Assembly: GCA_030601675.1 (NCBI GenBank)
Contig: JAUWBN010000004.1
Span: 2,113-66,112 of the forward strand
Length of the DNA stretch: 64,000 bases
From: Hadesarchaea archaeon
Lineage (GTDB): Archaea; Hadarchaeota; Hadarchaeia; Hadarchaeales; Hadarchaeaceae
Reading direction: 5' to 3'
Of the stretch, positions 4,937 through 19,598 are shown piece after piece. Every line of letters starts with the position of its first letter. Positions within the stretch are counted from its first letter, which is position 1. The translations under genes were made by a program, and so were the position numbers. The notes beneath the pieces are model-generated. The model saw only the letters and a program-made list of their open reading frames with translations, searched no databases and had not been told where the DNA came from.

Positions 4937-5596
4937 TTGAAGCTTGGTGAACCCGTGGTGAAAGGACCCTCCTCATTCGTCTTTCTGCTCGTGCGCCCGG
5001 GCTCCGGGAAGTCAGCCGTCTACCGCATGTTGGGGCAGAGGTTGCGCGAGGAAGGCTTGGTGAGCGATATCACGCGCATCGACGACTTCCCCGTGCTCAG
5101 GGAGCTGCTCGACCGCGACGTTGGATTCAAACGTCACTACCGAAAAGAGGGCGGCTTCGTCGTTACTGATTTCACGATTCTCGACGACGTGCTCAAAGAA
5201 ATCAACCGCAAGCTCAAGGAGCTCGAGCAGCCGGGCAGGGTGACCTTCATCGAGTTCGCCCGCGACCGATACGCCGATGCGCTCAAGAATTTCGACCGCG
5301 AAGTACTGGGGCGCTCGCTAATCCTCTACATTTACTGCCCGTTCGACATCTGCGTGGAGCGAAACGTTCGGAGGTTCAGGGAAGCTCGGGGCAAGGATAT
5401 CGACGACCACATCGCCCCCACCGACATCATGGAGCGCTACTACAAATACGACGACTACGAGGAGCTGTACCTAATAGAGGAGGCCGAACTGAAGCAGCAA
5501 GCCCCGGCGCCGCTTTTGGTGGTGCGCAACGATGTGGAAGGATTAGAGAGATTAAAGCGAGAGTTAGAAAAAGTCGTTGAAATATTCAAAATTTAG
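4937..5596 (+). CDS. P-loop kinase-like protein (hypothetical)
   Basis: 219 aa, TTG start. Walker-A-like LLVRPGSGKS near the N-terminus. The rest is unassigned. Confidence 0.5.
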   Translation: MKLGEPVVKGPSSFVFLLVRPGSGKSAVYRMLGQRLREEGLVSDITRIDDFPVLRELLDRDVGFKRHYRKEGGFVVTDFTILDDVLKEINRKLKELEQPGRVTFIEFARDRYADALKNFDREVLGRSLILYIYCPFDICVERNVRRFREARGKDIDDHIAPTDIMERYYKYDDYEELYLIEEAELKQQAPAPLLVVRNDVEGLERLKRELEKVVEIFKI

Positions 5597-5613
5597 GCTT
5601 ACCCAATATATTT

Positions 5614-5636
5614 AAATTTAGGCATACCTAAAATTT
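5614..5636. promoter_or_regulatory. Putative DtxR/IdeR-family operator overlapping the dtxR-feoB promoter
   Basis: Inverted repeat AAATTTAGG-CATA-CCTAAAATTT. It lies 6 nt upstream of ATG 5642, just downstream of an ATATATTTAAAT TATA-like element (5606-5617). A related half-site TTTAGGCTTACCC lies at 5592-5604. It resembles the TTAGG…CCTAA iron-box architecture. Confidence 0.5.
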
Positions 5637-5641
5637 AAGCG

Positions 5642-6259
5642 ATGATTACCGAAAGTACTGAAGAGTATTTGGAAGCAATCTACCGCTTACGCGAGCGGGG
5701 AGAGGCTGCCACTACTACGGGCGTAGCTAAGGAGCTCAAGGTGGCGCCCGCAAGTGTAACCGAGATGCTGAAAAAATTGGCTAATCAAGGGTACCTGAAA
5801 TACGCTCCCTACCGAGGGGTCACTTTAACACCAAAAGGAGAAAAAATCGGGGAAAAAATTCTGAGGAAACATCGGATAATGGAAAAGTTTCTGAGCACAT
5901 TGGGCTTACCAAAATCCAGGGTCCACAAAGACGCATGCGAGCTGGAGCACCACATCCCCGACGACCTCGAGAGGGCCATCCACCAAAAGGTTGAAGGCGA
6001 AAAACCGCTGCCTTCTGGAGCCCCCAGCAACGTCATGCCGCTCACTAGCCTGTTGGACGGGCAGAAGGGAGTCATCTCGTTCATCGGGGGCGGGCGGGGT
6101 GCTTCCCAGAGACTTGCGGACCTTGGGTTAACTCCTCACACGGAGATAACGGTCGTCAAGTCGGCCCTGTTTCACGGTCCGCTGATGATTTCCGTGCGGG
6201 GAACCACGTTGGCGATCGGCCGTGGCGTGGCGGCCAGAGTTTTTGTGAGAGCGAAATAG
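5642..6259 (+). CDS. DtxR/MntR-family metal-dependent transcriptional regulator fused to a FeoA-like domain
   Basis: N-terminus TEEYLEAIYRLRERGE…ASVTEMLKKLANQGYL…HRIMEKFL (DtxR wHTH plus dimerisation domain). C-terminal SH3-like FeoA segment (LTSLLDGQKGVISFI…LADLGLTPHTEITVV…). Stop abuts the feoB ATG. Confidence 0.85.
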   Translation: MITESTEEYLEAIYRLRERGEAATTTGVAKELKVAPASVTEMLKKLANQGYLKYAPYRGVTLTPKGEKIGEKILRKHRIMEKFLSTLGLPKSRVHKDACELEHHIPDDLERAIHQKVEGEKPLPSGAPSNVMPLTSLLDGQKGVISFIGGGRGASQRLADLGLTPHTEITVVKSALFHGPLMISVRGTTLAIGRGVAARVFVRAK

Positions 6260-8190: not shown

Positions 8191-8207
8191 TAATAATGTG
8201 CAATACC
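8191..8207 (+). promoter_or_regulatory. Copy 1 of recurrent ATGTGCAAT box (upstream of or overlapping the DUF134-like gene start)
   Basis: TAATAATGTGCAATACC. Shares ATGTGCAATA with the box at 9460-9480 (see findings). Confidence 0.45.
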
Positions 8208-8578
8208 ACTTTAATTTGGGTGATAGCTTGTACCAGTGGCGTCGCGGTCGGCGAAGGGGACCCGGGAGGCCGATGAAACCTAGGTTCTTGGGCTTCAGGC
8301 CCGGAGCGATAACGTTTATGCCATCCGCTCCAATAGGGCCTCCAATCGCCGCGGGTGAGCCAATCTACATGACCTATGACGAGTACGAGGCCTTCCGCCT
8401 GATTTATCACGAAGGGCTGAACCAGGAGGAGGCCGCCAAGCGGATGAAAATTTCGCGTGGGACGGTGTGGCGCTGCTTAGAGAGCGCAAGGGATAAGGTT
8501 GCCTGCATGCTCGTCGAACGCCGCCCGCTTGTGGTTACGCCTGCGCCTCCTCGGCCTTCTGAGGAGACAGGCACTTGA
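8198..8578 (+). CDS. DUF134/UPF0251-like DNA-binding protein (putative regulator)
   Basis: 126 aa. GRRRGPGRPMKPRF…F.P, then MTYDEYEAFRLIYHEGLNQEEAAKRMKISRGTVWRCLESARDKVA, a sigma-70 region-4-like HTH typical of DUF134. The true start may be downstream (TTG about 8228). Confidence 0.75.
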   Translation: MQYHFNLGDSLYQWRRGRRRGPGRPMKPRFLGFRPGAITFMPSAPIGPPIAAGEPIYMTYDEYEAFRLIYHEGLNQEEAAKRMKISRGTVWRCLESARDKVACMLVERRPLVVTPAPPRPSEETGT

Positions 8579-9438
8579 GCCAAGTCGATGGGATGCGGCT
8601 CACGGTCTTAGTCGACGATTCCAAGAACCCAATCAGACCTGAACTCACCGCCAAGCATGGGCTCTCCTTTTTCATCGAGCTGAAAGCTGGTAGACACACA
8701 ACTAATTTGCTGATGGATACCGGACCGTCCGCAGATGTCGTCTTACAAAATGCTCAGAAGCTCGATGTCGATTTGAGAAAGGTTGATTCGATTGTGCTGA
8801 GCCACGGACACTACGACCATACCGGTGGGCTCTTGGGCATCCTAAAGCACATCGGCAAAAAAGTGCCTGTGATAGCCCATCCGGGGGCCCTTGAGGCAAA
8901 ATTCGCGGCGAAGAAGAAGCGTCTCAAAAAAGCTGGCATTCCTTTTCGGGTTTCAGAGTTGGAGAAATCAAGCGGTATCTTAACTCTAAAACGGGGGCCG
9001 ACTTCTAAAGCACCTGGGATTTGGGTGAGCGGGGAAATCAAAAGAGCCAGTCCATTTGAAAAGGTTAAGGGATTCAAAACCATGAGGAGGGGCAAGCTCG
9101 TCGATGATTACATGCCGGATGATCAGGCGCTTTTCGTGAAGGTCAAGGGAAAAGGGCTTGTGGTCGTCACGGGTTGCGCTCACGCGGGGTTGATAAACAC
9201 GATTGAGCAGGCAAAAAAGGTAACGGGTTCGAGCGGCGTGTATGCGGTCGTTGGTGGGTTTCACCTAGCTGGAGCAAGTGCGGGAAGGATAAGTGCAACC
9301 ATCGAGGAGCTCCAGAAAGCTGGCGTGAAAGTAGTCATGCCATGTCACTGCACGGGAAAGAAGGCAATCACAAAGTTCTCGAAGGTCTTTGGAAAAAAGT
9401 GCAACCAGCTTAGAACAGGTAATGTAGTTACATTCTAA
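8575..9438 (+). CDS. MBL-fold metallo-hydrolase (COG1237 / MJ0301-like)
   Basis: 287 aa. LTVLVDD…GLSFFIE…LMDTGPS, metal motif LSHGHYDHTGGL, later GCAHAG and GGFHL. 4-nt overlap with the upstream gene. Confidence 0.8.
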   Translation: MSQVDGMRLTVLVDDSKNPIRPELTAKHGLSFFIELKAGRHTTNLLMDTGPSADVVLQNAQKLDVDLRKVDSIVLSHGHYDHTGGLLGILKHIGKKVPVIAHPGALEAKFAAKKKRLKKAGIPFRVSELEKSSGILTLKRGPTSKAPGIWVSGEIKRASPFEKVKGFKTMRRGKLVDDYMPDDQALFVKVKGKGLVVVTGCAHAGLINTIEQAKKVTGSSGVYAVVGGFHLAGASAGRISATIEELQKAGVKVVMPCHCTGKKAITKFSKVFGKKCNQLRTGNVVTF

Positions 9439-9459
9439 TCACCAAAAAGCTTTTATAGA

Positions 9460-9480
9460 ATTATGTGCAATAGCACAAAT
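9460..9480 (+). promoter_or_regulatory. Copy 2 of recurrent ATGTGCAAT box (palindromic TGTGC-AATA-GCACA), directly after TATA-like TTTTATAGA (9451-9459)
   Basis: ATTATGTGCAATAGCACAAAT, 15 nt upstream of ATG 9495. A GAGGTGG Shine-Dalgarno-like element lies between. Confidence 0.5.
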
Positions 9481-9494
9481 AGAGGTGGTAACAA

Positions 9495-9791
9495 ATGTGG
9501 GGGCCAGGTTTCGGCGGGGGTAGAGGCCGAGGCTGGGGCCGAGGTTGGTTTGGGCTTTGGCCGGGCAGAGGGCCTTTCAGCTATTTGCCGCCATGGCAGA
9601 GACCCAGGCGGATGTTTGGCTTCGGAAGAGGATTCGGCTGGGGGGTCAGATGGTTGGGCAATCCTTACGTCTGCGCCCGCTTCCCATGGCTTCCGAGGTG
9701 GTGGTGGGCTTACCCAGACGTCTACGGATCCCCTGGCTACGGATACCCCTACGCGGCGTATCCGCAGTACTCTTACCCGGGATACAGGTAA
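9495..9791 (+). CDS. RG/Trp/Tyr/Pro-rich low-complexity protein with GNPYVCARFPWLPRWWW motif (DUF5320-related N-terminal type)
   Basis: The frame was chosen because the motif is shared with ORF 18107. There are 4 differences over 51 nt, all synonymous third-position changes in this frame. SD-like GAGGTGG lies upstream. Confidence 0.7.
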   Translation: MWGPGFGGGRGRGWGRGWFGLWPGRGPFSYLPPWQRPRRMFGFGRGFGWGVRWLGNPYVCARFPWLPRWWWAYPDVYGSPGYGYPYAAYPQYSYPGYR

Positions 9792-9814
9792 ACAAACAAA
9801 AGGAGGTCAAAAGC

Positions 9815-10138
9815 ATGTGGTGGCCTAGAGGTCGGAGATGTTGGTGGTGGTACATGAATCCATACATGATGTATCCACCGTACCCGCCATACGTGCAAGC
9901 GCCACAGCAACCTTCGCAACCTGCGCAGCAACCCGCACAACAACCCCCAGCGGCACCTTACTACCCGCTCCCGCCGTTCATACCTCCTCCACCGACGCCC
10001 GAGCAAGAGATTGAATCGCTGGAGGCATACAAAGCTGAGATCGAAGAGGAGCTCAAAGGGATCGAGGCGAGGATAAAAGAGCTGAGGGAGTCCTTGGCCA
10101 AAGAATCCGGCGGTCAACCACCCGAAACCGGAAAGTGA
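9815..10138 (+). CDS. DUF5320-like protein (Trp/Pro/Gln-rich N-terminus, C-terminal coiled coil)
   Basis: ATG 9815 preceded by AGGAGG (9801-9806). MWWPRGRRCWWWYMNPYMMYPPYPPY…PEQEIESLEAYKAEIEEELKGIEARIKELRESL resembles the DUF5320 C-terminal coiled coil. Confidence 0.65.
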   Translation: MWWPRGRRCWWWYMNPYMMYPPYPPYVQAPQQPSQPAQQPAQQPPAAPYYPLPPFIPPPPTPEQEIESLEAYKAEIEEELKGIEARIKELRESLAKESGGQPPETGK

Positions 10139-10142
10139 TGAT

Positions 10143-10472
10143 TTGAAGCTCAAAGTGGCCGTTGCTACGAAGGGGCCCAAAGGTCTGAGGGACGAGGTAT
10201 CCTATGAATTCGGCAGGGCTCGAACTTTTACAGTTATCGACCTCGAAGGCGATCAGGTCAAAAACGTGAAAGTTGTGGATAATCCAGCAGCCTCGTATGA
10301 ATACGGGGCAGGCCCGATAGTCGTAAAGATGCTCGCTGACATGAAAATCGAAGTCGTGGTTGCGGGTGAATTCGGTCCAGGAGCTTCGGTGCTCCTCCGG
10401 GATAAAAATATTCGCGCGGCCAAGGTTAAAGCGGGGACAAACGTCAGTCGAGCTGTAAGTATAATTAGGTAG
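10143..10472 (+). CDS. NifX/NifB-C-terminal-like (dinitrogenase FeMo-cofactor biosynthesis domain, COG1433) protein
   Basis: 109 aa, TTG start. KVAVATKG…EFGRARTFTVIDLEGD…VKVVDNP…GAGPIVVKMLADMKIEVVVAGEFGPGA is the typical pattern of this small alpha/beta domain. Confidence 0.8.
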   Translation: MKLKVAVATKGPKGLRDEVSYEFGRARTFTVIDLEGDQVKNVKVVDNPAASYEYGAGPIVVKMLADMKIEVVVAGEFGPGASVLLRDKNIRAAKVKAGTNVSRAVSIIR

Positions 10473-10497
10473 GGTTGAGAGTAATTCGAGGTAACCC

Positions 10498-11385
10498 ATG
10501 AAAGTAGCAATACCTTCCAACACGCCAGGCGGACCAGATGCCGGAATATCTCCCCATTTTGGCAGATGTGATGTATTCACGGTAGTTGAAATTAAAAACG
10601 GCAAAATAGTGGGTGGGAGCACCATAGATAACCAAGGGGCGCATTTCGGTTTTGGGGCGACACCAGCAGAAATCTTGGCATCGAGCGGCATAGACGTGGT
10701 AGTGGCACAGGGCATGGGCCCCAAGGCTCTAGAGCTCTTGGGACAGAGTGGCATCAAAACATACTTTACCTCAGTCCAAACGGTCGGGGAGGCCGTGCGT
10801 GAGCTGATTGAGAGCAAGGCCAAGCTGGCCACCCCCGAGGAAGCCTGCAAAGAATCCAAGACAGCAACTGGACCACCCCAGACCCCTGTTATGCCTCCCT
10901 TTGGCCCCGGGATGGGCCGTGGAATGGGAAGAGGGATGGGCAGGGGGATGGAGCCCTATCCCTACGGACCCGCTTACCCACCGACGGCCCCTCCAATGCC
11001 GCATCCTCCACAACAAATGCCGAAGCCTTCTCCCCCACCGACAGGCCGCTTCAAGGTAGGTGTCGCAAGCCAAGGGCAAGGGGGACTCGACGACATGGTA
11101 TCGCCGATCTTTGGCAGGTCCCCAAGCTTTACCATCGTAGAAATAGAAGGGAAAGACATCAAAAACGTGAAAGTGGTGCCGAACCAATTCGTTTCTGCGC
11201 CTCGCGGTGTGGGAATCGCTGTGGTCCAGATGCTGGCAAGCGAAGGGGTGAAATTTATTTTGGCCGGACGATTTGGCCCTTGGGCATCCTCAACCTCTAG
11301 CCAATTTGATATACAAATGGTCATGGTTCCGCCTGGCGTGAAGATAAGGGACGCTATTAACCAGTACCTCATCGGTTCACGCTAG
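10498..11385 (+). CDS. Tandem NifX-like domain protein with Pro/Gly/RGM-repeat linker
   Basis: Two COG1433-like domains (MKVAIPSN…HFGRCDVFTVVEI…VVAQGMGPKA and FKVGVASQG…IFGRSPSFTIVEIEG…LAGRFGPWA). They are joined by the linker GPGMGRGMGRGMGRGMEPYPYGPAYPPTAPPMPHPPQQMP (about nt 10858-11046). Confidence 0.8.
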   Translation: MKVAIPSNTPGGPDAGISPHFGRCDVFTVVEIKNGKIVGGSTIDNQGAHFGFGATPAEILASSGIDVVVAQGMGPKALELLGQSGIKTYFTSVQTVGEAVRELIESKAKLATPEEACKESKTATGPPQTPVMPPFGPGMGRGMGRGMGRGMEPYPYGPAYPPTAPPMPHPPQQMPKPSPPPTGRFKVGVASQGQGGLDDMVSPIFGRSPSFTIVEIEGKDIKNVKVVPNQFVSAPRGVGIAVVQMLASEGVKFILAGRFGPWASSTSSQFDIQMVMVPPGVKIRDAINQYLIGSR

Positions 11386-11386
11386 G

Positions 11387-12292
11387 GTGCAGCGATTGAA
11401 GGAAATTGTGGTCGCTAGCGGGAAAGGTGGAGTCGGTAAAACCACGGTCGCTGCATCGCTCGCAGTTTTTTTGACCAAAGCTGGGACAAAAATCGTTGCG
11501 GCTGACGCAGATGTTGACGCACCAGATCTCTTGTTGGCACTGGGTGGCGGAAAGACAATTTCCTCAACCGAGATCGAAGCTTCAGAAAAAGCGGTGATCG
11601 ACGAGTCGAAATGCACAGGGTGTGGCAATTGCGTCAGTGCATGCCTGTTTGGCGCAATCGTGATGCAAAATCATCTACCAACCGTTATGCGACTCATGTG
11701 TGATGGCTGCGGTGTGTGCAAGGTTGTCTGTCCCGTCAATGCAGTTGAGGTGAAAAAAGCAGTGACGGGCACACTGAAAATCGAGGATACTAAGTACGGA
11801 TTCCCGTCGGTGACTGGGTACCTGAGGCTTGGCGAACATAATTCGGGACACCTTGTAGCGAGCGTAAAAAAATCCGGGCGGGAGACGGCTGAGGGCTTGG
11901 GGGCAAAGGCGCTCGTGGTCGACGCAGCACCGGGCATAGGTTGTCCAGTGATCGCTTCGATTTCGGGGGCCAGCTATGTCATTGCCGTTACCGAGCCGAC
12001 TCCTGCCGCCAAGCGGGATCTGGAACGCTTGGTCAAAGTAATAAAGCACTTCGGGGTCCCGGTGGGAGTGGTGATAAACAAGGCGAACCTTTCGGACGAC
12101 TTCAGGGTCACGCTTGAGGACTGGATAAAACATGAGCTAGGCTATCAGATTTTAGGCGAGATCCCCATCGACTACGAAGTTGTTAAAGCTTTGGTGAACA
12201 TGGCGCCGGTCACCGAGTTTAATCCAAATGCTGAAGCATCGAAGATCTTGACCGCGATAGCCAAACGCGTGAAGGATGAGGTCTCACCATGA
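11387..12292 (+). CDS. MinD/ParA-family P-loop ATPase with inserted 2x[4Fe-4S] ferredoxin domain (COG1149 type)
   Basis: GTG start. Deviant Walker A SGKGGVGKTTVAASLA. CTGCGNCVSACLFGAI and CDGCGVCKVVCPVNAV cluster motifs. DAAPGIGCPV Walker-B region. Confidence 0.85.
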   Translation: MQRLKEIVVASGKGGVGKTTVAASLAVFLTKAGTKIVAADADVDAPDLLLALGGGKTISSTEIEASEKAVIDESKCTGCGNCVSACLFGAIVMQNHLPTVMRLMCDGCGVCKVVCPVNAVEVKKAVTGTLKIEDTKYGFPSVTGYLRLGEHNSGHLVASVKKSGRETAEGLGAKALVVDAAPGIGCPVIASISGASYVIAVTEPTPAAKRDLERLVKVIKHFGVPVGVVINKANLSDDFRVTLEDWIKHELGYQILGEIPIDYEVVKALVNMAPVTEFNPNAEASKILTAIAKRVKDEVSP

Positions 12293-13242
12293 AATCTGGT
12301 GGGGAGGCATCAGCGAAATTACTCAGGAGAAAGCGCGTGGGCGTGCCCGTGATAGCAGTAACTGGTGGGAAGGGCGGCACGGGCAAAACCACGGTTGCGG
12401 TGAATTTAGCCGTGGGTCTGAGCATGAAAGGTTCCAAGGTCATGTTGGTTGACGCAGATGTTGATTGCCCTTGTTGCGCGATGTTGTTTGGAGCAGAACT
12501 GAGTAATGGCGAGGAGGTTAAAACATTCAAGCCTGTGATCGATGCTGCAAAATGCACTGGATGCGGAAAGTGTGTGGCGGTTTGTCATGACCACGCATTG
12601 GTGGGTCTTGAGGGGCAAGTCCCGTCACTTTTCGAAGAACTCTGCTCTGGGTGCAAAGCATGCCAGCTCGTCTGTGAAGTTGACGCCATAAAGAGTGGTC
12701 AGAAAGTTCTCGGTACCATCTACATCACAGATTCAAATGGGATTAAACTGGTGGTGGGCGAACTCAAACCGACCGAGCCGAGATCACCAATCGTGGCGCG
12801 CGCGACCATGCTCAGAGCCGCTGAGGAGCTTCGGAAGGACAAATACGACATCGTGATCGTGGACACTGCTCCGGGAATTCATAACGTGGTGGCTCAAGCC
12901 CTTTGGGAAGCCGACCTAGCGCTGGCTGTGACCGAGCCGACCCCGCTCGGAGCTCACGATCTGGGTTTCATGTTAGAGCTCACCGAGGAACTGGGGCTGC
13001 CGGCCGAGGTCATCCTGAACAAGGCGGATATCCCAGGCGGTTTGAAGGATGAAGTGGTGAAGACGAGTCGTGATCGGGGAGTTAAAATCGTTGCGGAGAT
13101 ACCGATGGACGAAGAGCTGTTGCGCTCCTACGTTTCGGGTGAGCCGCTTGTGAGAAAATCCCCTAAGAGTCCCTCTGCAGTTGCACTATTAGCTCTGGTC
13201 CCGCACATTCGTGAAATGTTTGTAAAAGGAGGTGAAACCTGA
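12289..13242 (+). CDS. MinD/ParA-family P-loop ATPase with inserted ferredoxin domain (second paralogue)
   Basis: TGGKGGTGKTTVAVNLA. CTGCGKCVAVCHDHAL and CSGCKACQLVCEVDAI. VDTAPGIHNVV. 4-nt overlap with the upstream paralogue. Confidence 0.85.
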   Translation: MKSGGEASAKLLRRKRVGVPVIAVTGGKGGTGKTTVAVNLAVGLSMKGSKVMLVDADVDCPCCAMLFGAELSNGEEVKTFKPVIDAAKCTGCGKCVAVCHDHALVGLEGQVPSLFEELCSGCKACQLVCEVDAIKSGQKVLGTIYITDSNGIKLVVGELKPTEPRSPIVARATMLRAAEELRKDKYDIVIVDTAPGIHNVVAQALWEADLALAVTEPTPLGAHDLGFMLELTEELGLPAEVILNKADIPGGLKDEVVKTSRDRGVKIVAEIPMDEELLRSYVSGEPLVRKSPKSPSAVALLALVPHIREMFVKGGET

Positions 13243-13481
13243 TGGCGCAACCACCCACCCCACCACCGCTGCCAACCAAAAAATTTCAATGTTTTGCATG
13301 TGGGAACATCATAGAGGTGCCTCGGGGCATGCCTAAGCCAGCGGCATGTCCTAGATGCGGTGCTCCGCTCGTGGCGATTCATCGTGTGGACAAGGGGCCG
13401 CCAGGTGGAAGAGGCGCGGGAAGGCGCGGTGCTGGTGGCCCTGGCGGAGGGCGCGGCAGGGGGCCACGTTGGTCTCAGTAG
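13242..13481 (+). CDS. Small C4 zinc-ribbon protein with Gly/Arg-rich tail
   Basis: 79 aa. ATG overlaps the upstream TGA by 1 nt and is preceded by GGAGGTGA. CFACG…x…CPRCG ribbon, then GGRGAGRRGAGGPGGGRGRGPRW. Confidence 0.55.
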   Translation: MAQPPTPPPLPTKKFQCFACGNIIEVPRGMPKPAACPRCGAPLVAIHRVDKGPPGGRGAGRRGAGGPGGGRGRGPRWSQ

Positions 13482-13582
13482 GCTTAGCCTCATTGAGATT
13501 TGAGATGCTGAGTTGATCTGGGTTAATCTAGAGGAAAAAATCAGGTGAAAATTAAAAACAGAACTTAGAGGAGGAAAGCTGA

Positions 13583-14308
13583 ATGAACGATCTTTTGTTA
13601 ATACTGTTCTTGATTTTTGTCGGGCAGACCCTAGGATCATTGATAGGTCTCATCAAAAAACCAGGCAAAGTTGCCTTATACGGTTCTTTATCTTTTGCTG
13701 CAAGCATGATGATTGTCATATCCTTTGTTCAGCTGATACCCGAAGGCTTAAAATATACGTCTTTATTTTTGATAGCAATCTCGTTTTTCGTTGGGATAGT
13801 AATAATGCGGATAGTGGATCGTTTATTACCCCACATCAATCCTGAATTAATTAAAAAAGAAAAGCCCTCTGTTAAGAGAAGCGTCACCATGTTGGTCATC
13901 GGCATAGCTTTGCACAATATTCCAGAAGGTTTGGCAATCGGGGCCGGTTTTGCAATAACTGCGGAATTGGGAATCGTTATTGCGTTAGCTATTGCAATCC
14001 AGGATCTTCCGGAAAACATTGCAACAATTGTTCCATTATACGGTTTGATCAAGAAAAAAGCAAAGTCATTTATCATCCTTATTGCCACGGTACTGTTCGA
14101 GGTGGCTGGATTTATCATAGGATATTTAGTCTTGGGAGGAGCATCGTTGAGCTGGCTGGGGGCTTCACTGGCGCTTGCAGCGGGGTTCATGGTTTACATC
14201 TCTGTCGAGGAATTGATACCTTCAGCACAGGTAAAGAAGTATCCCAAAATGGCGGCAGCGGCCATGGTTTTAGGTGTGATGTGTGTTCTATTAACAAGTT
14301 TGATATGA
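13583..14308 (+). CDS. ZIP-family (ZupT-like) divalent metal transporter
   Basis: 241 aa, polytopic. HNIPEGLAIG and QDLPENIA signature helices. GGAGGA SD upstream. Visibly AT-richer than the flanks. Confidence 0.85.
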   Translation: MNDLLLILFLIFVGQTLGSLIGLIKKPGKVALYGSLSFAASMMIVISFVQLIPEGLKYTSLFLIAISFFVGIVIMRIVDRLLPHINPELIKKEKPSVKRSVTMLVIGIALHNIPEGLAIGAGFAITAELGIVIALAIAIQDLPENIATIVPLYGLIKKKAKSFIILIATVLFEVAGFIIGYLVLGGASLSWLGASLALAAGFMVYISVEELIPSAQVKKYPKMAAAAMVLGVMCVLLTSLI

Positions 14309-14363
14309 TTAAATCGGTAAAAGAGAGATTAGATAGAAGTCTAGGATAATTCGGTGAATAAAA

Positions 14364-15203
14364 ATGAAGACCTATTTAGATTGCATCCCGTGCTTCGTGA
14401 GGCAGGCTTTGGAAGCGAGCAAGATGGCTACGGGGAACAAAATTAAACAGGAAAAAGCATTAAAGGCGGTTTTATCGGAGCTGGAGAAGACTTCATTAAA
14501 AAATAAGATACCGCCGCAGATCGCTCGCAAGGTTCATAGCATAGTCAGGGAGGTGACAAAAAACAATGACCCTTACAAGAAAGTGAAAGATAGATACAAC
14601 AGAAAAGCTCTAAAAATGTATCCAAGTCTTAAACGAAAGGTCGCCAAGTCTAAAGATAGATTGTTAACGGCAACGAAGCTCGCCATAGCTGGAAATATCA
14701 TCGACTTCGGCCCCGGTTCGAAATTCGATCTCGAGAAAACTGTAGAAGATGTTTTAATTCAGGATTTCGCGATAAATCATTTTAACCAGTTTAGAAAAGC
14801 GTTGAACAGTTCTAAAAAAATTTTATATCTGGGAGACAATGCCGGTGAAGTTGGTTTTGACCGCATTCTCCTAGAAGAATTGAAGGATAAAGAGATCACA
14901 TTTGTCGTCAAGGGAGGGCCCATCATTAATGATGCAACGGTTGAGGATGCGAGGTTTGTAGGGATAGACAAAATTGCGAAGATTGAAGTGGTTAGCAACG
15001 GTGATCCCGGCACGGGACCAGCTAGATGGTCGAAGGAGTTTATCAACAAACTGAAAGACGCGGATCTCGTGATCAGCAAGGGGCAAGGCAACTACGAGGC
15101 CTTAAGTGAAGTGGATGCAGATATCTTCTTCTTACTCAAGGTGAAGTGCCCATTGATTGCTAGGGACATAGGTGCCAAGGTCGGCGGTACCGTAATAAAA
15201 TGA
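14364..15203 (+). CDS. DUF89 (ARMT1-like damage-control phosphatase) family protein
   Basis: 279 aa. N-terminal CIPCFVRQALEA, later IAGNIIDFG, LGDNAGEVGFD and KGQGNYEAL motifs typical of DUF89. Confidence 0.8.
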   Translation: MKTYLDCIPCFVRQALEASKMATGNKIKQEKALKAVLSELEKTSLKNKIPPQIARKVHSIVREVTKNNDPYKKVKDRYNRKALKMYPSLKRKVAKSKDRLLTATKLAIAGNIIDFGPGSKFDLEKTVEDVLIQDFAINHFNQFRKALNSSKKILYLGDNAGEVGFDRILLEELKDKEITFVVKGGPIINDATVEDARFVGIDKIAKIEVVSNGDPGTGPARWSKEFINKLKDADLVISKGQGNYEALSEVDADIFFLLKVKCPLIARDIGAKVGGTVIK

Positions 15204-15228
15204 TGCTTTAGCTCACTAGGCGATCGGG

Positions 15229-16404
15229 ATGTTAGGAGTCAAGGCCGAAGCCATCACCGCGGAAGAAATGGCCAAGGTAGATCAAAAAGCAGCGGAATTC
15301 GGGATTCCCAGCATCCTGCTTATGGAAAACGCCGGGGGGGTCGTCGCAAGGATCATAACAGAAAAATTCGGTACCAAATTGAAGGTGGCAGTTTTTGTTG
15401 GCACGGGCAACAATGGCGGGGATGGGCTCGTCGCTATCAGACACTTGATGAGTAAAAGGGCCAAAGTAGATGTCTTCTTGATCGGAGATCCGGGGGATAT
15501 CCGTACTGAAGAAGCGCGCCTGAACTGGAATGTGATACAAAAAATGAGGCAAAATGTCAAGATCCATGTGGTTAAAAGCATCTCCGACCTTAAGGGGGCA
15601 GCGCGCTACCTAAAGCGTGCAGATGTGATTATCGATGCTATGCTTGGGACTGGCCTAAAGGGTCCGCTCAGGGAGCCTTTCGCTTCCGCGGCGCGCTTGG
15701 TGAACGTGTCGAAGCCCCCCGTAGTTTCAATAGACTCGCCCACCGGGTTGGATCCATCGACTGGCGAGGTACACGGGGTCGCGGTCAAGGCAACTTATAC
15801 TGTGACTTTTCACAGGATGAAAATGGGATTTCTCAAGGCGAAGGGGTACGTGGGCGAGGTCATAGTAGCTGATATCGGGATCCCTCAGGAAGTCGAGGCT
15901 GCAGCCATCGGCAAGCGCCGGCGTTTACAGTGGAGAGTTGGGAAGGCACCGAAAGAAACCCCGAAGTTAGTGAGCGCGTGTCTTTTGGGAATTAACTGTA
16001 GGTATGACGGTCAAAACAACCTTAACGAGAAAGTGATGCGGCTGGTCGAAAAAGAGGTGCTGATCCCCGTCTGTCCAGAGCAGCTTGGCGGGCTCGGAAC
16101 GCCAAGGGAGCCCATGGGGGTAATCGGAGGAGGGGGTTCGGAGGTTTTAGACGGGAAGGCGAGGGTTATAAACAGGAGCAATAAGGACGTGACGGAGAAC
16201 TTGGCGAGAGGCGCGGAGGAAACTTTGAAGATCGCGAGGTCGTCAGGCGCGAGGGAAGCGATCTTTAAGGCGAGAAGTCCCTCCTGCGGGTGCGGAAAAA
16301 TTCACGATGGGACGACTCCCAACAAACTCATCGAGGGGGACGGGGTCACGGCTGCATTGTTGAAGAGGAACGGCATCCACGTAATCACGGAGGATGGCCT
16401 TTGA
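15229..16404 (+). CDS. NAD(P)H-hydrate epimerase (YjeF N-terminal domain) fused to a DUF523 (TudS-like) domain
   Basis: N-terminal half LMENAG…FVGTGNNGGDGLVAIRHL…IIDAMLGTGL (YjeF_N). C-terminal half from about aa 247 VSACLLGINCRYDGQNN…PVCPEQLGGLGTPREP…RSPSCG (DUF523 pattern). Confidence 0.8.
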   Translation: MLGVKAEAITAEEMAKVDQKAAEFGIPSILLMENAGGVVARIITEKFGTKLKVAVFVGTGNNGGDGLVAIRHLMSKRAKVDVFLIGDPGDIRTEEARLNWNVIQKMRQNVKIHVVKSISDLKGAARYLKRADVIIDAMLGTGLKGPLREPFASAARLVNVSKPPVVSIDSPTGLDPSTGEVHGVAVKATYTVTFHRMKMGFLKAKGYVGEVIVADIGIPQEVEAAAIGKRRRLQWRVGKAPKETPKLVSACLLGINCRYDGQNNLNEKVMRLVEKEVLIPVCPEQLGGLGTPREPMGVIGGGGSEVLDGKARVINRSNKDVTENLARGAEETLKIARSSGAREAIFKARSPSCGCGKIHDGTTPNKLIEGDGVTAALLKRNGIHVITEDGL

Positions 16405-16872
16405 TTACACCTTGCCCTCAAGCCAGCCAATTTTAACGTTATTTTTCTGGTCAAACTTTGGAACATATGGTTTGATGTCCAAGAGAGGGGTGCCGTCGAG
16501 CATGTCGATACCCCTCACCTTCAAGATATTTCCTTCGCGTTCCAACAGCTCCACGATAGTGAGCCCTATTTGATTCGGCCTGTTCGGGGATCTCGTGGCG
16601 AAAAGTCCGCGCGGGGCATCGTCTAAATAAGGTTTTACCAGAAGCCCAAACGAATTCAGGTAATGTTCTTTTTTTATCGAGCGCTTGACAGACTTGTGAA
16701 ACATGTACAAAATTATGAGGTGGGAGAAACCCTCGACATCCTTCAGCCCCTCCTCGTACTCCTTAAAAACTTCGATTTCACCGATTTCCTTCGATTTGTA
16801 TGCTTGGTGGGGCGCTTCTCCGTCCTTTTTGTATGGCGTGTGGATTATCCCTATGGGTTTTAATTCCCTCAT
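16405..16872 (-). CDS. TsaA/TrmO-like (YaeB, UPF0066) tRNA methyltransferase family protein
   Basis: Core MRELKPIGIIHTPY…FSHLIILYMFH…FATRSPNRPNQIGLTIVELLEREGNILKVRGIDMLDGTPLLDIKPY. The internal ATG 16872 was chosen, giving an ATGA overlap with the upstream MBL gene. The track ORF extends to 16956. Confidence 0.8.
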   Translation of the reverse strand: MRELKPIGIIHTPYKKDGEAPHQAYKSKEIGEIEVFKEYEEGLKDVEGFSHLIILYMFHKSVKRSIKKEHYLNSFGLLVKPYLDDAPRGLFATRSPNRPNQIGLTIVELLEREGNILKVRGIDMLDGTPLLDIKPYVPKFDQKNNVKIGWLEGKV

Positions 16873-17516
16873 TCTATCACCAGCCCCACCCCACACCTCA
16901 CGTATTGTTTCGGGAACGCGCGCGCTAACTCCCTTTTGTATGAGGTACAGTGGCATGGAGAAATCAATTTAACTCTTTTTAGAATGTCGAAATCACTGAA
17001 TCCATGGAAACCACCGATGACGCCGTATATCTCGCCAAACTTTGATGCCGCAATTACGATTCTATGCATCCCAGAATGAGCGCAGCCCGTAATCACAAAT
17101 ACGCCTCTTTTGTTCAAACAGATTAATGATTGTTCTTTAATGCAAGTGCCTAGCTCGCCTGTCGTAAATACATCCTTACGTATCTGCATTGGTTTTCGAG
17201 CCTCAACCAGTTTTGTTTTTGCCGGAATTTGATTTTTTAACCACTTGGAAAACGATGTCAAGGCGTACACAGAAAGGTCTTGGTTTTCTTCAATCAGATC
17301 CGATAAACCACCAGTATGATCCCCATGCCCGTGCGACAATACAACGGATCTTATATCGCTCGGATCGATGCCCAATTTTTCCATGTTGTCTAATAAGGCA
17401 ACGCCATCGCCGCCAGTGTCGAATAAAATGTCATTATCGATTAAACAGGAAAAACCCCAGCCCGCCGTCAATCCTCTCTTTAACACTTCGTTGTCGTAAA
17501 CTACTGTTATTTTCAT
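16869..17516 (-). CDS. MBL-fold metallo-hydrolase (COG1237-type), second paralogue
   Basis: MKITVVYDN…GWGFSCLIDNDILFDTGG…VLSHGHGDHTGGL…GCAHSG…GGFHG. The internal ATG at 17516 was preferred over the track start 17564. Confidence 0.8.
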   Translation of the reverse strand: MKITVVYDNEVLKRGLTAGWGFSCLIDNDILFDTGGDGVALLDNMEKLGIDPSDIRSVVLSHGHGDHTGGLSDLIEENQDLSVYALTSFSKWLKNQIPAKTKLVEARKPMQIRKDVFTTGELGTCIKEQSLICLNKRGVFVITGCAHSGMHRIVIAASKFGEIYGVIGGFHGFSDFDILKRVKLISPCHCTSYKRELARAFPKQYVRCGVGLVIE

Positions 17517-17563
17517 GCCCGCAAGTCTCCTTTCGTAATTTTGTACAGTAAAGTTTATATACA

Positions 17564-17585
17564 ATTATGTGCATATGCCCATAAT
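17564..17585 (+). promoter_or_regulatory. Copy 3 of recurrent ATGTGCA(A/T)AT box, after TATA-like TTTATATA (17554-17561), in a divergent promoter region
   Basis: ATTATGTGCATATGCCCATAAT (imperfect palindrome). Located between the MBL gene (minus) and the DUF5320-like pair (plus). Confidence 0.45.
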
Positions 17586-17590
17586 AGGAG

Positions 17591-18106
17591 ATGGGGAAAA
17601 TGGCTTACGGTCAGGGAGGTTGGAGAAGGAGAAGAAGGAACATGTATTACCTCACCGGCCTGCCGGGATGGATGAGGTTCGGATATTCACCAGGATGGGT
17701 AGGCAGAAGCCCCACAGGACTGCCACCAACCGCTCAATATTTGATGCAGACGGGACAGGTGCCTCAACCCACACCTTACACGGCACAGCCACCAGCGCAA
17801 ATGGTGGTTCCTACACATGAGAACTGCGCTAATTTTGGGAATGGGTTCTGCCAATTATACGGTGCTGCCGTGGATCCTAGCGGCAGCGCCTGCCCAAGCT
17901 TCACACCGAAAAGTTCCGCTTCAGCGCCACAGACACCACCAACGCAACCCATGTTTCAAGCACCTGCCAGTTTTCCTCCAGCACAAATGTCCCAGATACC
18001 CAAAGAACAGGAAATTCAGGTGTTGGAGGGTCAGGCAAGAATGTTTGATCAACAACTAGAACAAATCAAAAGAAGGATTGAAGAACTCAAAAGGGAGGTG
18101 AAATGA
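17591..18106 (+). CDS. DUF5320-like protein (Arg-rich N-terminus, Cys motif, Pro/Gln-rich spacer, C-terminal coiled coil)
   Basis: 171 aa. GGWRRRRRNMYYLTGLPGWMRFGYSPGW…CANFGNGFCQLYG…CPSF…IPKEQEIQVLEGQARMFDQQLEQIKRRIEELKRE. The start may be ATG 17600. Confidence 0.65.
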   Translation: MGKMAYGQGGWRRRRRNMYYLTGLPGWMRFGYSPGWVGRSPTGLPPTAQYLMQTGQVPQPTPYTAQPPAQMVVPTHENCANFGNGFCQLYGAAVDPSGSACPSFTPKSSASAPQTPPTQPMFQAPASFPPAQMSQIPKEQEIQVLEGQARMFDQQLEQIKRRIEELKREVK

Positions 18107-18616
18107 ATGCCGTTCGGCTGGGGAAGAGGATTTGGTAGAGGATTTGGTAGAGGATTCGGATGGGGGGGCAACCCCTACGTCTGCGCGCGGTTCCCATGGC
18201 TTCCGAGGTGGTGGTGGACTGGAATGTACGGCCCCACGACACCTTTTACGGGAGCACCGGGGATGCCCTACACGTCGTATGGCCAATATGGCACGCCAGG
18301 GATGCCTTATTCGCCAGACTACACATCGCCTTATGGCCAATATGGCACGTACGCAACGTCAGCCCCAACAGCTGCACCATGGACAACCTATACACCGTAC
18401 TACGCGCCACCCTACAGCACGTATGCACCACCGGCCACAGCAATGCCGAGCATGACCTACCCATCGCCATATACACCATCACCTTACCCAACAGGCGCGG
18501 AGATCCCTCAAATTCCGAAGGAACAAGAAAGACAAATGCTTGAAGGTCAGGCGACAGCACTTCAGCAGCAATTAGACCAGATCAAGAAGAGGCTTGAAGA
18601 GCTAAGCAAAATGTAG
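18107..18616 (+). CDS. RGF-repeat / GNPYVCARFPWLPRWWW-motif protein with Tyr/Pro/Thr-rich spacer and DUF5320-like coiled coil
   Basis: ATG immediately after the upstream TGA, with a GGGAGGTGA SD. MPFGWGRGFGRGFGRGFGWGGNPYVCARFPWLPRWWW…IPKEQERQMLEGQATALQQQLDQIKKRLEELSK. Paralogous to 9495-9791 (N-terminus) and to 17591-18106 (C-terminus). Confidence 0.7.
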   Translation: MPFGWGRGFGRGFGRGFGWGGNPYVCARFPWLPRWWWTGMYGPTTPFTGAPGMPYTSYGQYGTPGMPYSPDYTSPYGQYGTYATSAPTAAPWTTYTPYYAPPYSTYAPPATAMPSMTYPSPYTPSPYPTGAEIPQIPKEQERQMLEGQATALQQQLDQIKKRLEELSKM

Positions 18617-18705
18617 GGCTCCAACAGCCTTATCAGCGAGTTCGACAACTGGGGCGAAGAGTACTACGATACGTGTGTAGCCTCATTAAATCAGATAGAC
18701 AAATA

Positions 18706-18722
18706 CTTATTGTGCAATCGCC
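18706..18722 (+). promoter_or_regulatory. Copy 4 of recurrent box (TTGTGCAAT variant) upstream of the Mrp/NBP35 gene
   Basis: CTTATTGTGCAATCGCC, 16 nt upstream of ATG 18738. Confidence 0.4.
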
Positions 18723-18737
18723 GAAAAGGAATTTTAA

Positions 18738-19598
18738 ATGGGAGTGAAGCAAGTGGAAGGAAGGATGAAGGAAATACAGGAGCAGGAGAAGCGTATCAAA
18801 ATACGGATGGCCAAAATCAAACATAAACTGGTGATACTAAGCGGAAAGGGCGGAGTCGGCAAGAGTACCATCACCGCTAATTTAGCCATCGCATTGGCAC
18901 GCAAGGGTCACAAGGTGGGTGTTTTAGATATTGACATTCACGGCCCAAGCATCCCCAAAATACTCGGCATCAGGGGACAGGGGTTGACCACAGGGCGGCT
19001 CGAAGGCCTAGGTATATTCCCGGCCAAAGGACCGCTCGACACCAAGGTCATCTCCATGGATTTCCTCCTTCCGAGCGATGAAACTCCAGTCATCTGGCGC
19101 GGCCCCATGAAGACGGGCGCGATCAGGCAGTTTCTTGCGGACGTAGCATGGGGCAACCTAGATTTTCTGCTTGTAGATGTACCTCCAGGCACTGGCGATG
19201 AACCCCTTAGTTTGATGCAGTTGTTGCCCGGCATCGACGGCGTTATTATTGTGACTGCTCCTTCTGAGGTTTCCCAAATCGTCGTCAAGAGGGCCGTCGG
19301 ATTTACAAGAGAGTTGCACGTGCCTGTACTAGGTATCGTTGAAAACATGAGCGGATTTATCTGTCCAAAGTGCGGGGCAGAAGTTGATATTTTTGGAAGC
19401 GGAGGAGGTCAAAAAATAGCGGGAGAACTGGGAGTGCCATTCCTCGAAAGGATTCCAATCGATTCAAAGATATGCGAGGATTCGGACAGAGGGACACCCT
19501 TCATCATCGAGCATGCCGAAACTCCAGCAGCCAAGGCATTCATGCGAGTGGTGGACAAAGTGGAGGAATTTTTAAAACAGCAGGGGGCACGAGCTTGA
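18738..19598 (+). CDS. Mrp/NBP35/ApbC-family Fe-S cluster carrier ATPase
   Basis: LSGKGGVGKSTITANLA (deviant Walker A), DIDIHGPSIP, VDVPPGTGDE, and the ICPKCG CxxC motif characteristic of the family. Confidence 0.88.
   Translation: MGVKQVEGRMKEIQEQEKRIKIRMAKIKHKLVILSGKGGVGKSTITANLAIALARKGHKVGVLDIDIHGPSIPKILGIRGQGLTTGRLEGLGIFPAKGPLDTKVISMDFLLPSDETPVIWRGPMKTGAIRQFLADVAWGNLDFLLVDVPPGTGDEPLSLMQLLPGIDGVIIVTAPSEVSQIVVKRAVGFTRELHVPVLGIVENMSGFICPKCGAEVDIFGSGGGQKIAGELGVPFLERIPIDSKICEDSDRGTPFIIEHAETPAAKAFMRVVDKVEEFLKQQGARA

Follow-up and report, generated by a model that had tools for sequence, protein, structure and literature searches.

The DUF134 cluster of a Hadesarchaea genome

The region described here belongs to a 64,000-nucleotide window (the whole stretch of DNA that was analysed) from Hadesarchaea archaeon (GCA_030601675.1, contig JAUWBN010000004.1, positions 2,113 to 66,112); all coordinates refer to this window. 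The cluster is rich in Fe/Zn transport and Fe-S proteins. It is headed by a gene for a DtxR-FeoA fusion protein (5642-6259), which is followed by feoB (stop at 8182) and, after a gap of 45 nt, by a gene on the forward strand coding for a DUF134 (UPF0251) protein (8228-8578; Pfam PF02001, E = 1.5e-16; NCBIfam PRK04217). The probable start codon of the latter is TTG at position 8228, which is preceded by GGTGAT. DUF134 is a small, uncharacterised stand-alone protein of roughly 100 residues with a basic N-terminal arm (RRGRRRGPGRPMKPR) and the recognition helix ISRGTVWRCLESAR; an AF2 model (pLDDT 80) predicts a helix-turn-helix and a C-terminal strand at residues 101-103, and no sensor domain is evident. 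A metallo-beta-lactamase (MBL)-fold gene is located downstream of DUF134 (8575-9438, forward strand).

The adjacent operon (9495-13481, forward strand), whose gene order is kept in relatives, codes for two W/G/R/P-rich small proteins, which are DUF5320-like (9495-9791 and 9815-10138), two NifX-like proteins (10143-10472 and 10498-11385), two MinD/CbiA-ferredoxin ATPases (11387-12292 and 12289-13242) and a Zn-ribbon protein (13242-13481). A second MBL-fold gene (16869-17516, reverse strand) is divergently oriented to a second DUF5320-like pair on the forward strand (17591-18616; first gene from 17591 or 17600 to 18106, second gene 18107-18616), for which only weak hits to Pfam PF17253 were obtained. 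This pair is followed by the genes for Mrp/NBP35 (18738-19598) and DUF364 (ending at 20353), which are also encoded on the forward strand.

A TGTGC-N4-GCACA palindrome in the promoters of the cluster

In a preliminary description, a recurrent box was noted at the start of four transcription units of the cluster, namely those of DUF134, the two DUF5320-like pairs and Mrp/NBP35, and all four sites could be confirmed. However, the functional unit is a 5-4-5 palindrome, TGTGC-(A/T)4-GCACA with A/T-rich flanks, rather than the string ATGTGCAAT proposed initially, which comprises only the left arm plus spacer. Site 2 (ATTATGTGC-AATA-GCACAAATA, 9460-9481) contains the perfect core TGTGC-AATA-GCACA (TGTGCAATAGCACA, 9464-9477); it lies just 3' of the TATA-like box TTTTATAG (9451-9458, forward strand), which has an A-rich BRE-like stretch upstream, and 14 nt before the ATG at 9495. 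Site 3 (ATTATGTGC-ATAT-GCCCATAAT, 17564-17585) has one arm mismatch in its core (TGTGCATATGCCCA, 17568-17581), and the extended 22-mer is a 9-4-9 palindrome with one mismatch. It abuts the TATA-like box TTTATATA (17554-17561, forward strand) in the divergent promoter shared with the second MBL gene; on the strand of the MBL gene, the palindrome lies upstream of the shared TATA region. Sites 1 and 4 are degenerate and must be regarded as weak candidates. In site 1 (ATAATGTGC-AATA-CCACTTTAA, 8193-8214; core TGTGCAATACCACT, 8197-8210), which lies between feoB and DUF134, the left arm and spacer are perfect, but only 3 of 5 right-arm bases match. In site 4 (TTATTGTGC-AATC-GCCGAAAAG, 18707-18728; core TGTGCAATCGCCGA, 18711-18724), the left arm is perfect and the right arm again matches 3 of 5 bases; its core ends 13 nt before the Mrp ATG at 18738. 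Start codons lie 6-16 nt after the ends of the sites as originally delimited.

TGTGC-N4-GCACA is unique in the 937,688-base assembly. In a scan with a symmetric matrix, which includes sites 2 and 3 themselves, site 3 scores 33.3 bits and site 2 scores 24.0 bits, whereas the next best genomic site reaches 16.1 bits and the best site in the reversed-sequence control 15.3 bits. Genome-wide, 68 sites with at most 2 arm mismatches and an A/T-rich spacer are found, four of which lie in the roughly 800 bp of promoter DNA of this cluster (0.058 expected, Poisson P about 4.5e-7). The 8-mer TGTGCAAT alone, however, is not significant in the window (4 found, 1.4 expected, 8 of 100 shuffles reach 4). The initial statement that the box is absent from other intergenic regions holds for the window.

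It is possible, though we consider it the less likely reading, that only sites 2 and 3 are real operators and that sites 1 and 4 are chance half-site resemblances or belong to some other element, in which case DUF134 and Mrp would not be under this control in this genome. As half-sites alone, sites 1 and 4 are not distinguishable from background: their left halves score 12.1 and 8.35 bits, site 1 stands about 85th in the ranked list and 975 half-sites score at least as well as site 4. Site 1 may also lie inside a read-through dtxR-feoB-DUF134 transcript, and although it is conserved in two genera, conservation of both sites within the genus is uninformative since the flanks are conserved too. 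On the other hand, the presence of two extra loose matches in the cluster promoters has a P of about 0.002. Furthermore, the element yGwGCAATCGCC is kept upstream of Mrp in the related genomes G015, G019 and G034 while the flanks differ; in genome G020 it is a near-perfect palindrome (TGTGCAATAGCAAA), and an exact TGTGCCTTTGCACA precedes Mrp in a Methanomethylicia MAG. Upstream of DUF134, the position of site 1 carries a fuller palindrome, TTACGTGC-GAAT-GAACATAA, in genome G023, which belongs to another genus, and the DUF134 operon of G020 has TGTGCATAAGAACA after its TATA box. Palindromes upstream of DUF134 are also found in two further loci (L124 and L125) and in bacteria. The strong sites are conserved as well: site 2 is identical or nearly so in the orthologous promoters of many Hadarchaeota, and site 3 is kept in G034 and G037, relatives from other families of the order, while the flanks diverge.

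We also considered whether the palindromes act as nucleic-acid structures, such as a terminator of the upstream gene or a 5'-UTR hairpin, or are instances of repeated arrays found upstream of promoters in this genome. Indeed, site 2 follows the stop codon of the MBL gene and can form a 5-bp hairpin (-6 kcal/mol, z = -2.9), and direct-repeat arrays containing TTTATGTGCA exist at other loci. However, the hairpins at sites 1, 3 and 4 are no better than shuffles, the expected transcription start lies inside or after the palindrome, and the covariation with a protein helix described below is not expected for an RNA structure. The arrays appear to be a different element: their units differ from array to array, they sit upstream of TATA boxes and they also occur in relatives whose DUF134 reads GAAT arms. 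This explanation is therefore very unlikely.

Association of the palindrome with DUF134 proteins

The preliminary description inferred that the boxes are a shared operator read by the co-encoded DUF134 protein, which would tie both modules into one regulon. Comparative genomics supports this interpretation. In 28 of 42 archaeal loci with this type of DUF134 protein (type A), a TGTGC-W4-GCACA palindrome with at most 1 mismatch is present, often directly beside the DUF134 gene, whereas 14 of 42 show no palindrome within the fetched flank. In total, 33 such palindromes, 18 of which are exact in the scan that allows one G/C in the spacer, were found in 390 kb of type-A DUF134 loci from many archaeal phyla, compared to 5 (1 exact) in the whole 938-kb G000 genome. 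They abut the TATA box of genes for DUF5320-like (most), NifX-like, Mrp or DUF134 proteins, and the arrangement of a TATA box followed by the palindrome is seen in 26 archaeal sites. The exact palindrome occurs in 20 of 46 loci whose DUF134 has the recognition helix S-R-G-T, which span Hadarchaeota, Brockarchaeota, Thermoproteota, Methanomethylicia, Thermoplasmata MAGs and Bacillota, but in 0 of 34 loci with other helices (Fisher P = 2e-6). Among 41 related genomes, it is present in 6 of 11 type-A genomes and in 0 of 30 others (P = 1e-4).

In addition, recognition helix and operator arm change together across Archaea and Bacteria. SRGT pairs with TGTGC, including 4 bacterial loci in which the site follows the -10 box upstream of the DUF134 gene, SRATFGR pairs with TGAGC, SRPTF with TGAAC and SRQTFGR with TGGGC. 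SQPTFHR pairs with TGAAT, both in another family of the same order and in a Nanoarchaeia MAG. Thirteen of 38 bacterial loci carry a perfect TGnnn-W4-nnnCA within 131 nt upstream of the DUF134 ORF, whereas only about 7 occur elsewhere in 358 kb. It should be noted, however, that the covariation rests on a limited number of independent clades and that the loci were found with a search seeded on QEEAAKRM-type peptides, so that the sample is not random. Moreover, the relatives with an SRNT helix (G025 and G039) show no perfect TGnnn-W4-nnnCA palindrome within 1.5 kb.

Two other binders were considered. The palindromes could be bound by a transcription factor encoded elsewhere, for example a winged-helix, CRP/FNR-like or Rex-like redox sensor, and be associated with DUF134 only because both belong to the same conserved gene neighbourhood. 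The TGTG...CACA arms recall CRP and Rex boxes, and the genome has several generic winged-helix proteins. However, the spacing is TGTG-N6-CACA rather than the N8 that appears to be typical of CRP/Rex-type boxes (the Thermoanaerobacter Rex motif is TTGTTA-N6-TAACAA; PMC5886521), the arms change in step with the DUF134 recognition helix in at least five helix classes and in both domains, and in bacteria the site sits at the promoter of the DUF134 gene itself. An unrelated factor cannot be formally excluded, but seems unlikely. The second candidate is the DtxR-FeoA fusion protein, which is encoded in the same cluster and would make this an iron regulon. This is strongly disfavoured, since its own promoter carries a classic DtxR-type palindrome, TTTAGGCATACCTAAA (5617-5632), plus a half-site. 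This box matches the motif TTTAGGC-N3-CCTAAA of Haloferax volcanii TroR (PMC10783522); like the sites described here, it is an A/T-flanked palindrome at an archaeal promoter of metal-related genes, but it differs in arm sequence (TTAGG versus TGTGC) and spacing. The same split is seen in the related genome G040, in which a TTAGGGAAACCCTAA box precedes dtxR and the DUF134-type box precedes the divergent ferredoxin gene. Many loci with the palindrome were not seen to carry a DtxR gene, although this was not counted systematically.

Relation to known regulators and predicted mode of action

The closest solved relative of the DUF134 helix-turn-helix, in sequence and fold, is the DNA-binding domain of Bacillus subtilis DeoR (SorC family, DeoR subclass; PDB 7bhy, 8r7y), with E = 0.006, 39-40% identity over about 41 residues and a TM score of 0.70 normalised on the target (7bhy). 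The DeoR recognition helix, ISRPTVSRLL, resembles the DUF134 helices, and its solved left half-operator at dra-nupC-pdp, ATTGAAC-AAAA-TTTCAAT, has the same 5-4-5 layout, with the TGAAC arm predicted for SRPTF-type DUF134 proteins (PMC11229326). DeoR is a repressor that overlaps the promoter, and its DNA-binding domain dimerises through a beta strand after the helix-turn-helix, where the DUF134 model has a strand too. In contrast to DeoR, DUF134 has no sugar-phosphate effector domain and no tetramer-forming domain, the operator is a single palindrome with TGTGC arms between TATA box and start rather than a 39-bp bipartite site, and the regulated genes are Fe-S/ORP-type genes rather than nucleoside catabolism genes.

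A comparable gene set is found in the two divergent orp (orange protein complex) operons of Desulfovibrio vulgaris Hildenborough, which encode the MinD-like Fe-S ATPases Orp3 and Orp4, the NifX-like orange protein Orp8 and the Mrp/NBP35 protein Orp9 (PMC8359166, PMC3897727, PMC6345978). Both systems are organised as two transcription units under one dedicated regulator; however, the orp operons are activated by the enhancer-binding protein OrpR at sigma-54 promoters together with IHF, and Archaea lack sigma-54. In the archaeon, control is predicted to be repression by a small helix-turn-helix protein at TATA-proximal palindromes, and the DUF5320-like genes are the first and best-conserved targets.

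We therefore propose, with fair confidence but on the basis of comparative genomics only, that the boxes are operators of the cluster-encoded DUF134 protein. A DUF134 dimer would place its two recognition helices (ISRGTVWR...) in successive major grooves of the palindrome wTTwTGTGC-(A/T)4-GCACAwAAw. In this archaeon, the site fills the space from the 3' edge of the TATA box to about the inferred transcription start, and bound protein should therefore let TBP/TFB bind but block the recruitment of RNA polymerase. A similar operator position is probably used by classical archaeal repressors of the MDR1, LrpA, Phr and TrmB type, which belong to different protein families; the DUF134 operator, however, is also used at bacterial sigma-70 promoters, where it lies right after the -10 box. 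In this model, the strong sites control the two operons that begin with the W/G/R/P-rich DUF5320-like genes, one of which also encodes the NifX-like and MinD-ferredoxin proteins of an ORP-type module, and the weaker sites probably give partial control of Mrp/DUF364 and of DUF134 itself. Thus, DUF134 probably represses a cluster of iron-sulfur-related genes in this Hadarchaeota genome, and the same pair of protein and site recurs across many archaeal phyla and in some bacteria.

The palindromic sites and their gene neighbourhood

All four sites described in the preliminary description are present in the sequence. Aligned on their shared core, they read ATAATGTGC-AATA-CCACTTTAA (site 1, 8193-8214), ATTATGTGC-AATA-GCACAAATA (site 2, 9460-9481), ATTATGTGC-ATAT-GCCCATAAT (site 3, 17564-17585) and TTATTGTGC-AATC-GCCGAAAAG (site 4, 18707-18728). 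The unit is therefore a 5-4-5 inverted repeat, TGTGC-N4-GCACA, with A/T-rich flanks, whereas the ATGTGCAAT box proposed in the preliminary description is only its left arm plus spacer. Site 2 is perfect and site 3 has one arm mismatch; sites 1 and 4 keep the left arm but only 3 of 5 right-arm bases, and the spacer of site 4 contains one G/C. TATA-like boxes, TTTTATAG at 9451-9458 and TTTATATA at 17554-17561, lie immediately 5' of sites 2 and 3, and A/T-rich TATA candidates also abut sites 1 and 4.

According to Pfam searches, the genes along the window encode, in order, a DtxR-FeoA fusion (5642-6259) and FeoB, the DUF134 protein (about 8228-8578), an MBL-fold protein, two W/G/R/P-rich small proteins that are only weakly DUF5320-like, two NifX-like (Nitro_FeMo-Co) proteins, two MinD/CbiA ATPases with ferredoxin inserts (CbiA/ParA+Fer4), a Zn-ribbon protein, ZIP, an ARMT1-like protein and YjeF_N-DUF523, followed by TrmO and a second MBL protein on the minus strand, two DUF5320-like proteins, Mrp/NBP35 (ParA/NUBPL) and DUF364. 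The longest DUF134 reading frame starts at GTG 8198, which is inside site 1; however, TTG 8228, preceded by GGTGAT, fits better and is the probable start. For the first DUF5320-like gene of the second pair, orthologues start at the second ATG (17600, MAYGQGG) rather than at 17591. The cluster is an archaeal version of the ORP ('orange protein complex') module of Desulfovibrio, in which Orp3/4 are MinD-like, Orp8 is NifX-like and Orp9 is Mrp (PMC6345978).

The assembly comprises 0.94 Mb in 35 contigs and is 86% complete, and TGTGC-N4-GCACA occurs in it only once. A symmetric matrix built from half-sites of sites 2 and 3 and their orthologues scores site 3 at 33.3 bits and site 2 at 24.0 bits, while the next best site in the genome scores 16.1 bits and the best in the reversed-sequence control 15.3 bits; since the matrix contains these sites, the point is the absence of any other comparable site. 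With a definition taken from other phyla (at most 2 arm mismatches and an A/T-rich spacer), the genome has 68 matches, four of which lie in about 800 bp of promoter DNA of this cluster (expected 0.058, P about 4.5e-7). For the two weak sites alone, P is about 0.002; as bare half-sites, however, sites 1 and 4 are ordinary and a half-site matrix cannot separate them from background. The 8-mer count in the window is not significant, and a test for 7-mer over-representation in crude intergenic DNA did not single out the box, as TATGTGC and the others are about 1.5 times expected. The half-site alone is too short to be informative.

Outside the window, at C8:436-600, C16:4307-4413, C18:32760-32790, C31:14257, C5:2510-2575 and C3:28866 (contig:position), the genome holds peculiar promoter-upstream arrays, each with usually three direct copies of a 10-12-nt unit at 18-20-nt spacing, then the constant CAAAGCC(C/G)(C/G), then 12-35 nt and a BRE/TATA element. 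Some units read TTTATGTGCA, but the unit differs per array (TTTATGTGCA, TTTATGGGCA, TTTATTAGCA, ACTTTTGCAAC, ACTTTTTAAACA), and such arrays also occur in relatives with a GAAT-reading DUF134, for instance at about 18960-19010 of the relative locus L040 and at the relative locus L037. No Rfam family or tRNA lies near them, and two arrays have no clear ORF downstream. We treat them as a separate, unexplained element. The possibility that the palindromes act as an RNA hairpin or terminator receives little support, as the folding energies are weak and not better than those of shuffled sequences for three of the four sites.

A DtxR-type box also differs from the four sites, which have TGTGC arms and not the TTAGG(C/T)-type arms of a roughly 19-bp DtxR/IdeR palindrome. 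A classic DtxR-type operator, TTTAGGCATACCTAAA (5617-5632), and a half-site, TTTAGGCTTACCC (5592-5604), flank the TATA-like ATATATTTAAAT in front of the DtxR-FeoA/FeoB operon, which is probably subject to iron-dependent autoregulation separate from the DUF134 sites. This box matches the motif of TroR, TTTAGGC-N3-CCTAAA (PMC10783522). In the related genome G040, a TTAGGGAAACCCTAA box and a DUF134-type box serve the two divergent promoters. The two motif classes are thus distinct, and the DtxR-FeoA protein is disfavoured as the binder because of its own distinct box.

Conservation within the order and across phyla

Genomes of the same genus keep all four sites; however, their flanks are conserved too, so this says little. 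Two genomes of other families (G034 and G037) are more telling, as they keep TTATGTGCATAT... after the TATA box of the DUF5320 pair while the flanks diverge. G023, a genome of another genus, has TTACGTGC-GAAT-GAACATAA before DUF134, and the related genome G020 has TGTGCATAAGAACA after the TATA box of a ferritin-like/DUF134 operon and two tandem palindromes before its DUF5320a gene. Upstream of Mrp, the element yGwGCAATCGCC is kept in the relatives G015, G019 and G034 with different flanks, and in G020 it is TGTGCAATAGCAAA. The Mrp/NBP35 homologue of G037 (C28:200-1033) is reported with one in-frame TGA, which could be a sequencing error, a pseudogene or recoding. An exact TGTGCATATGCACA in G037 (C19:24607) is embedded in a longer inverted repeat of about 30 bp (cctaatgtatTGTGCATATGCACAatacattagg) near a contig end, beside an ORF with a basic K/R-rich N-terminus, and may be the end of a mobile element rather than an operator.

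In a further family of the same order (f4), the homologous cluster (DUF5320, NifX, DUF134, Mrp, MinD x2, DUF364, MBL) has a different palindrome of identical architecture at the same place after the TATA box. This palindrome is TGAAT-ATAT-ATTCA; the equivalent operator, TGAATATATATTCA, is often present in two tandem copies. It also precedes a 71-aa ferredoxin heading a membrane-hydrogenase-like operon (G040), a DtxR paralogue and a NifX-like gene (G027), a C_GCAxxG_C_C-like gene (G033) and a NuoE-like gene (G036), which suggests a wider Fe-S/redox regulon there. The DUF134 proteins of f4 carry the recognition helix SQPTFHRIL, whereas the genomes with TGTGC boxes carry SRGTVWRCL; the helix encoded in the window is ISRGTVWRCL.

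A search of one-genome-per-species contigs with the DUF134 protein of the window returned 80 loci. Of the 42 archaeal loci, all but one yielded an SRGT-type helix in a pattern scan; they come from Hadarchaeota, Brockarchaeota, Hecatellales, Methanomethylicia, Desulfurococcales, Acidilobaceae, Ignisphaera, and MAGs labelled Thermococci and Thermoplasmata. A TGTGC-W-rich-GCACA palindrome with at most one mismatch is found in 28 of the 42 loci, with 33 such sites, 18 of them exact, in 390 kb; by comparison, the whole genome studied here has 5 (1 exact) in 938 kb. The gene just downstream usually encodes a small protein with the near-invariant block GPWPGRGPFSYLPPWQRPGW, the homologue of the gene at 9495-9791 of the window; otherwise, it is a NifX-like gene, Mrp or DUF134 itself. 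This small protein, with the block GPWPGRGPFSYLPPWQRPGW(x)FGRG(x)CWW, is strikingly conserved from Hadarchaeota to Desulfurococcales and Thermoplasmata MAGs, has no Pfam or NCBIfam hit and is the product of the most constant gene behind the palindrome. The consensus over 26 oriented archaeal sites is wTTw-TGTGC-AwwA-GCACA-AAAw, located directly after or overlapping the 3' edge of a BRE/TATA element. Furthermore, four bacterial loci (two Anaerocolumna, a Bacillota MAG and a Saganbacteria MAG) have TGTGCATATGCACA upstream of their DUF134 gene. In the three Bacillota loci it follows a clear TTGACA-N17-TATAAT promoter, and in the Saganbacteria locus a less canonical hexamer, GTTATA. All four proteins have an SRGT helix.

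Recognition helix, operator arm and the predicted DUF134 fold

Sorting the loci without an SRGT helix by their recognition helix (L numbers denote the retrieved loci) revealed that SRATFGR is paired with TGAGC-ATAT-GCTCA (L127, and twice in L162), SRPTF(S/T)R with TGAAC-WWWW-GTTCA (L132, L133, L140, L145, L146, L147, L160 and L163), SRQTFGR with TGGGC-ATAT-GCCCA (L137) and SQPTFHR with (T/C)GAAT-N4-ATTCA (family f4 and a Nanoarchaeia MAG, L155). Thirteen of 38 bacterial loci have a perfect TGnnn-W4-nnnCA within 131 nt upstream of the DUF134 reading frame, and only about seven such palindromes occur elsewhere in 358 kb. Exact TGTGC-W4-GCACA is found in 20 of 46 SRGT loci and in 0 of 34 others (Fisher P = 2.3e-6), and among the 41 relatives in 6 of 11 genomes with the DUF134 type of the window (type A) and in 0 of 30 others (P = 1e-4). 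A scan of these 41 relatives allowing one mismatch was as noisy as its reversed control, and only exact matches and matches next to DUF134 were used. The sample is not phylogenetically corrected and was seeded on a conserved peptide, and these P values therefore overstate independence; still, the pattern recurs in separate clades of both domains. Relatives with an SRNTVWRLV helix (G025 and G039), however, show no perfect TGnnn-W4-nnnCA palindrome within 1.5 kb. Covariation with the DUF134 helix is not explained by a CRP-, FNR- or Rex-like factor. The arm spacing, which is TGTG-N6-CACA in all strong sites in 30 or more loci, is also two bases shorter than the TGTG-N8-CACA spacing that would be expected for their boxes (TGTGA-N6-TCACA or TTGTGAA-N4-TTCACAA). 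A search for Crp-type HTH proteins was uninformative, since the model hits generic winged-helix proteins in every control genome.

No DUF134 structure was found in the PDB by sequence, and the best match is the DNA-binding domain of B. subtilis DeoR (7bhy, E = 0.006). An AlphaFold model made with 39 aligned homologues has a mean pLDDT of 80 (above 90 across the HTH) and shows a three-helix HTH (residues 50-97), which is followed by a short strand (101-103) and preceded by a disordered basic arm. Foldseek ranks 7bhy/8r7y (DeoR on its operator; TM 0.70 on the target) and sigma-70 region 4 domains first. The DeoR domain dimerises through the strand after the HTH, its two helices sit one DNA turn apart in the major groove, arginines of the I-S-R-P-T-V-S-R helix touch bases, and the left half-operator is ATTGAAC-AAAA-TTTCAAT (PMC11229326). 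This is the same 5-4-5 layout, and it contains the TGAAC arm that is predicted here for SRPTF-type DUF134 proteins, which gives the computational code an experimental anchor. The DUF134 protein would work like a DeoR DNA-binding domain; however, it is not a member of the SorC family, as it consists of 116 aa, has no domain beyond the HTH and one strand and lacks the C-terminal sugar-phosphate-binding effector domain that forms tetramers. It also has no evident sensor domain, and its two cysteines (WRC...ACM) are not conserved across the family.

Proposed role of DUF134

The proposal that the boxes form a shared operator read by the co-encoded DUF134 protein is supported by comparative genomics only, binding itself being inferred, with the refinement that the palindrome is the unit and that sites 1 and 4 are weaker. 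We propose that DUF134 binds to the palindrome as a dimer. Judged from the TATA boxes, the palindrome covers roughly -20 to +1 at the site 2 and site 3 promoters, and DUF134 would therefore repress by excluding RNA polymerase. The degenerate sites before DUF134 and Mrp would give weaker control, including negative autoregulation.

DUF134 (UPF0251, COG1342) has been a family of unknown function since the first archaeal genomes, and no paper on its function, its DNA site or DUF5320 was found in the full texts searched, in which the only mention of UPF0251 is a mutation-table entry in a paper on Rex. The window, read together with its relatives, gives the family a concrete and testable role as a repressor with a defined 14-22-bp operator, a defined position at the promoter, which is inferred, and a defined target set. 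The tiny W/G/R/P-rich proteins are the most constant targets and are thus the key unknown of the system. It is somewhat more likely than not that DUF134 is an ancient family of stand-alone repressors resembling the DeoR DNA-binding domain and shared by Archaea and Bacteria, in which the residues at the start of the recognition helix (S-R-G, S-R-A, S-R-P, S-R-Q, S-Q-P) set bases 3 to 5 of a TGnnn-ATAT-nnnCA operator that works under both TATA/TFB and sigma-70 promoters. In this view, the core regulon is the ORP-type metallocluster module, whose Fe-S genes depend on sigma-54/OrpR in Desulfovibrio, plus the unexplained W/G/R/P-rich GPWPGRGPFSYLPPWQRPGW small proteins, which would make DUF134 the missing archaeal counterpart of OrpR.
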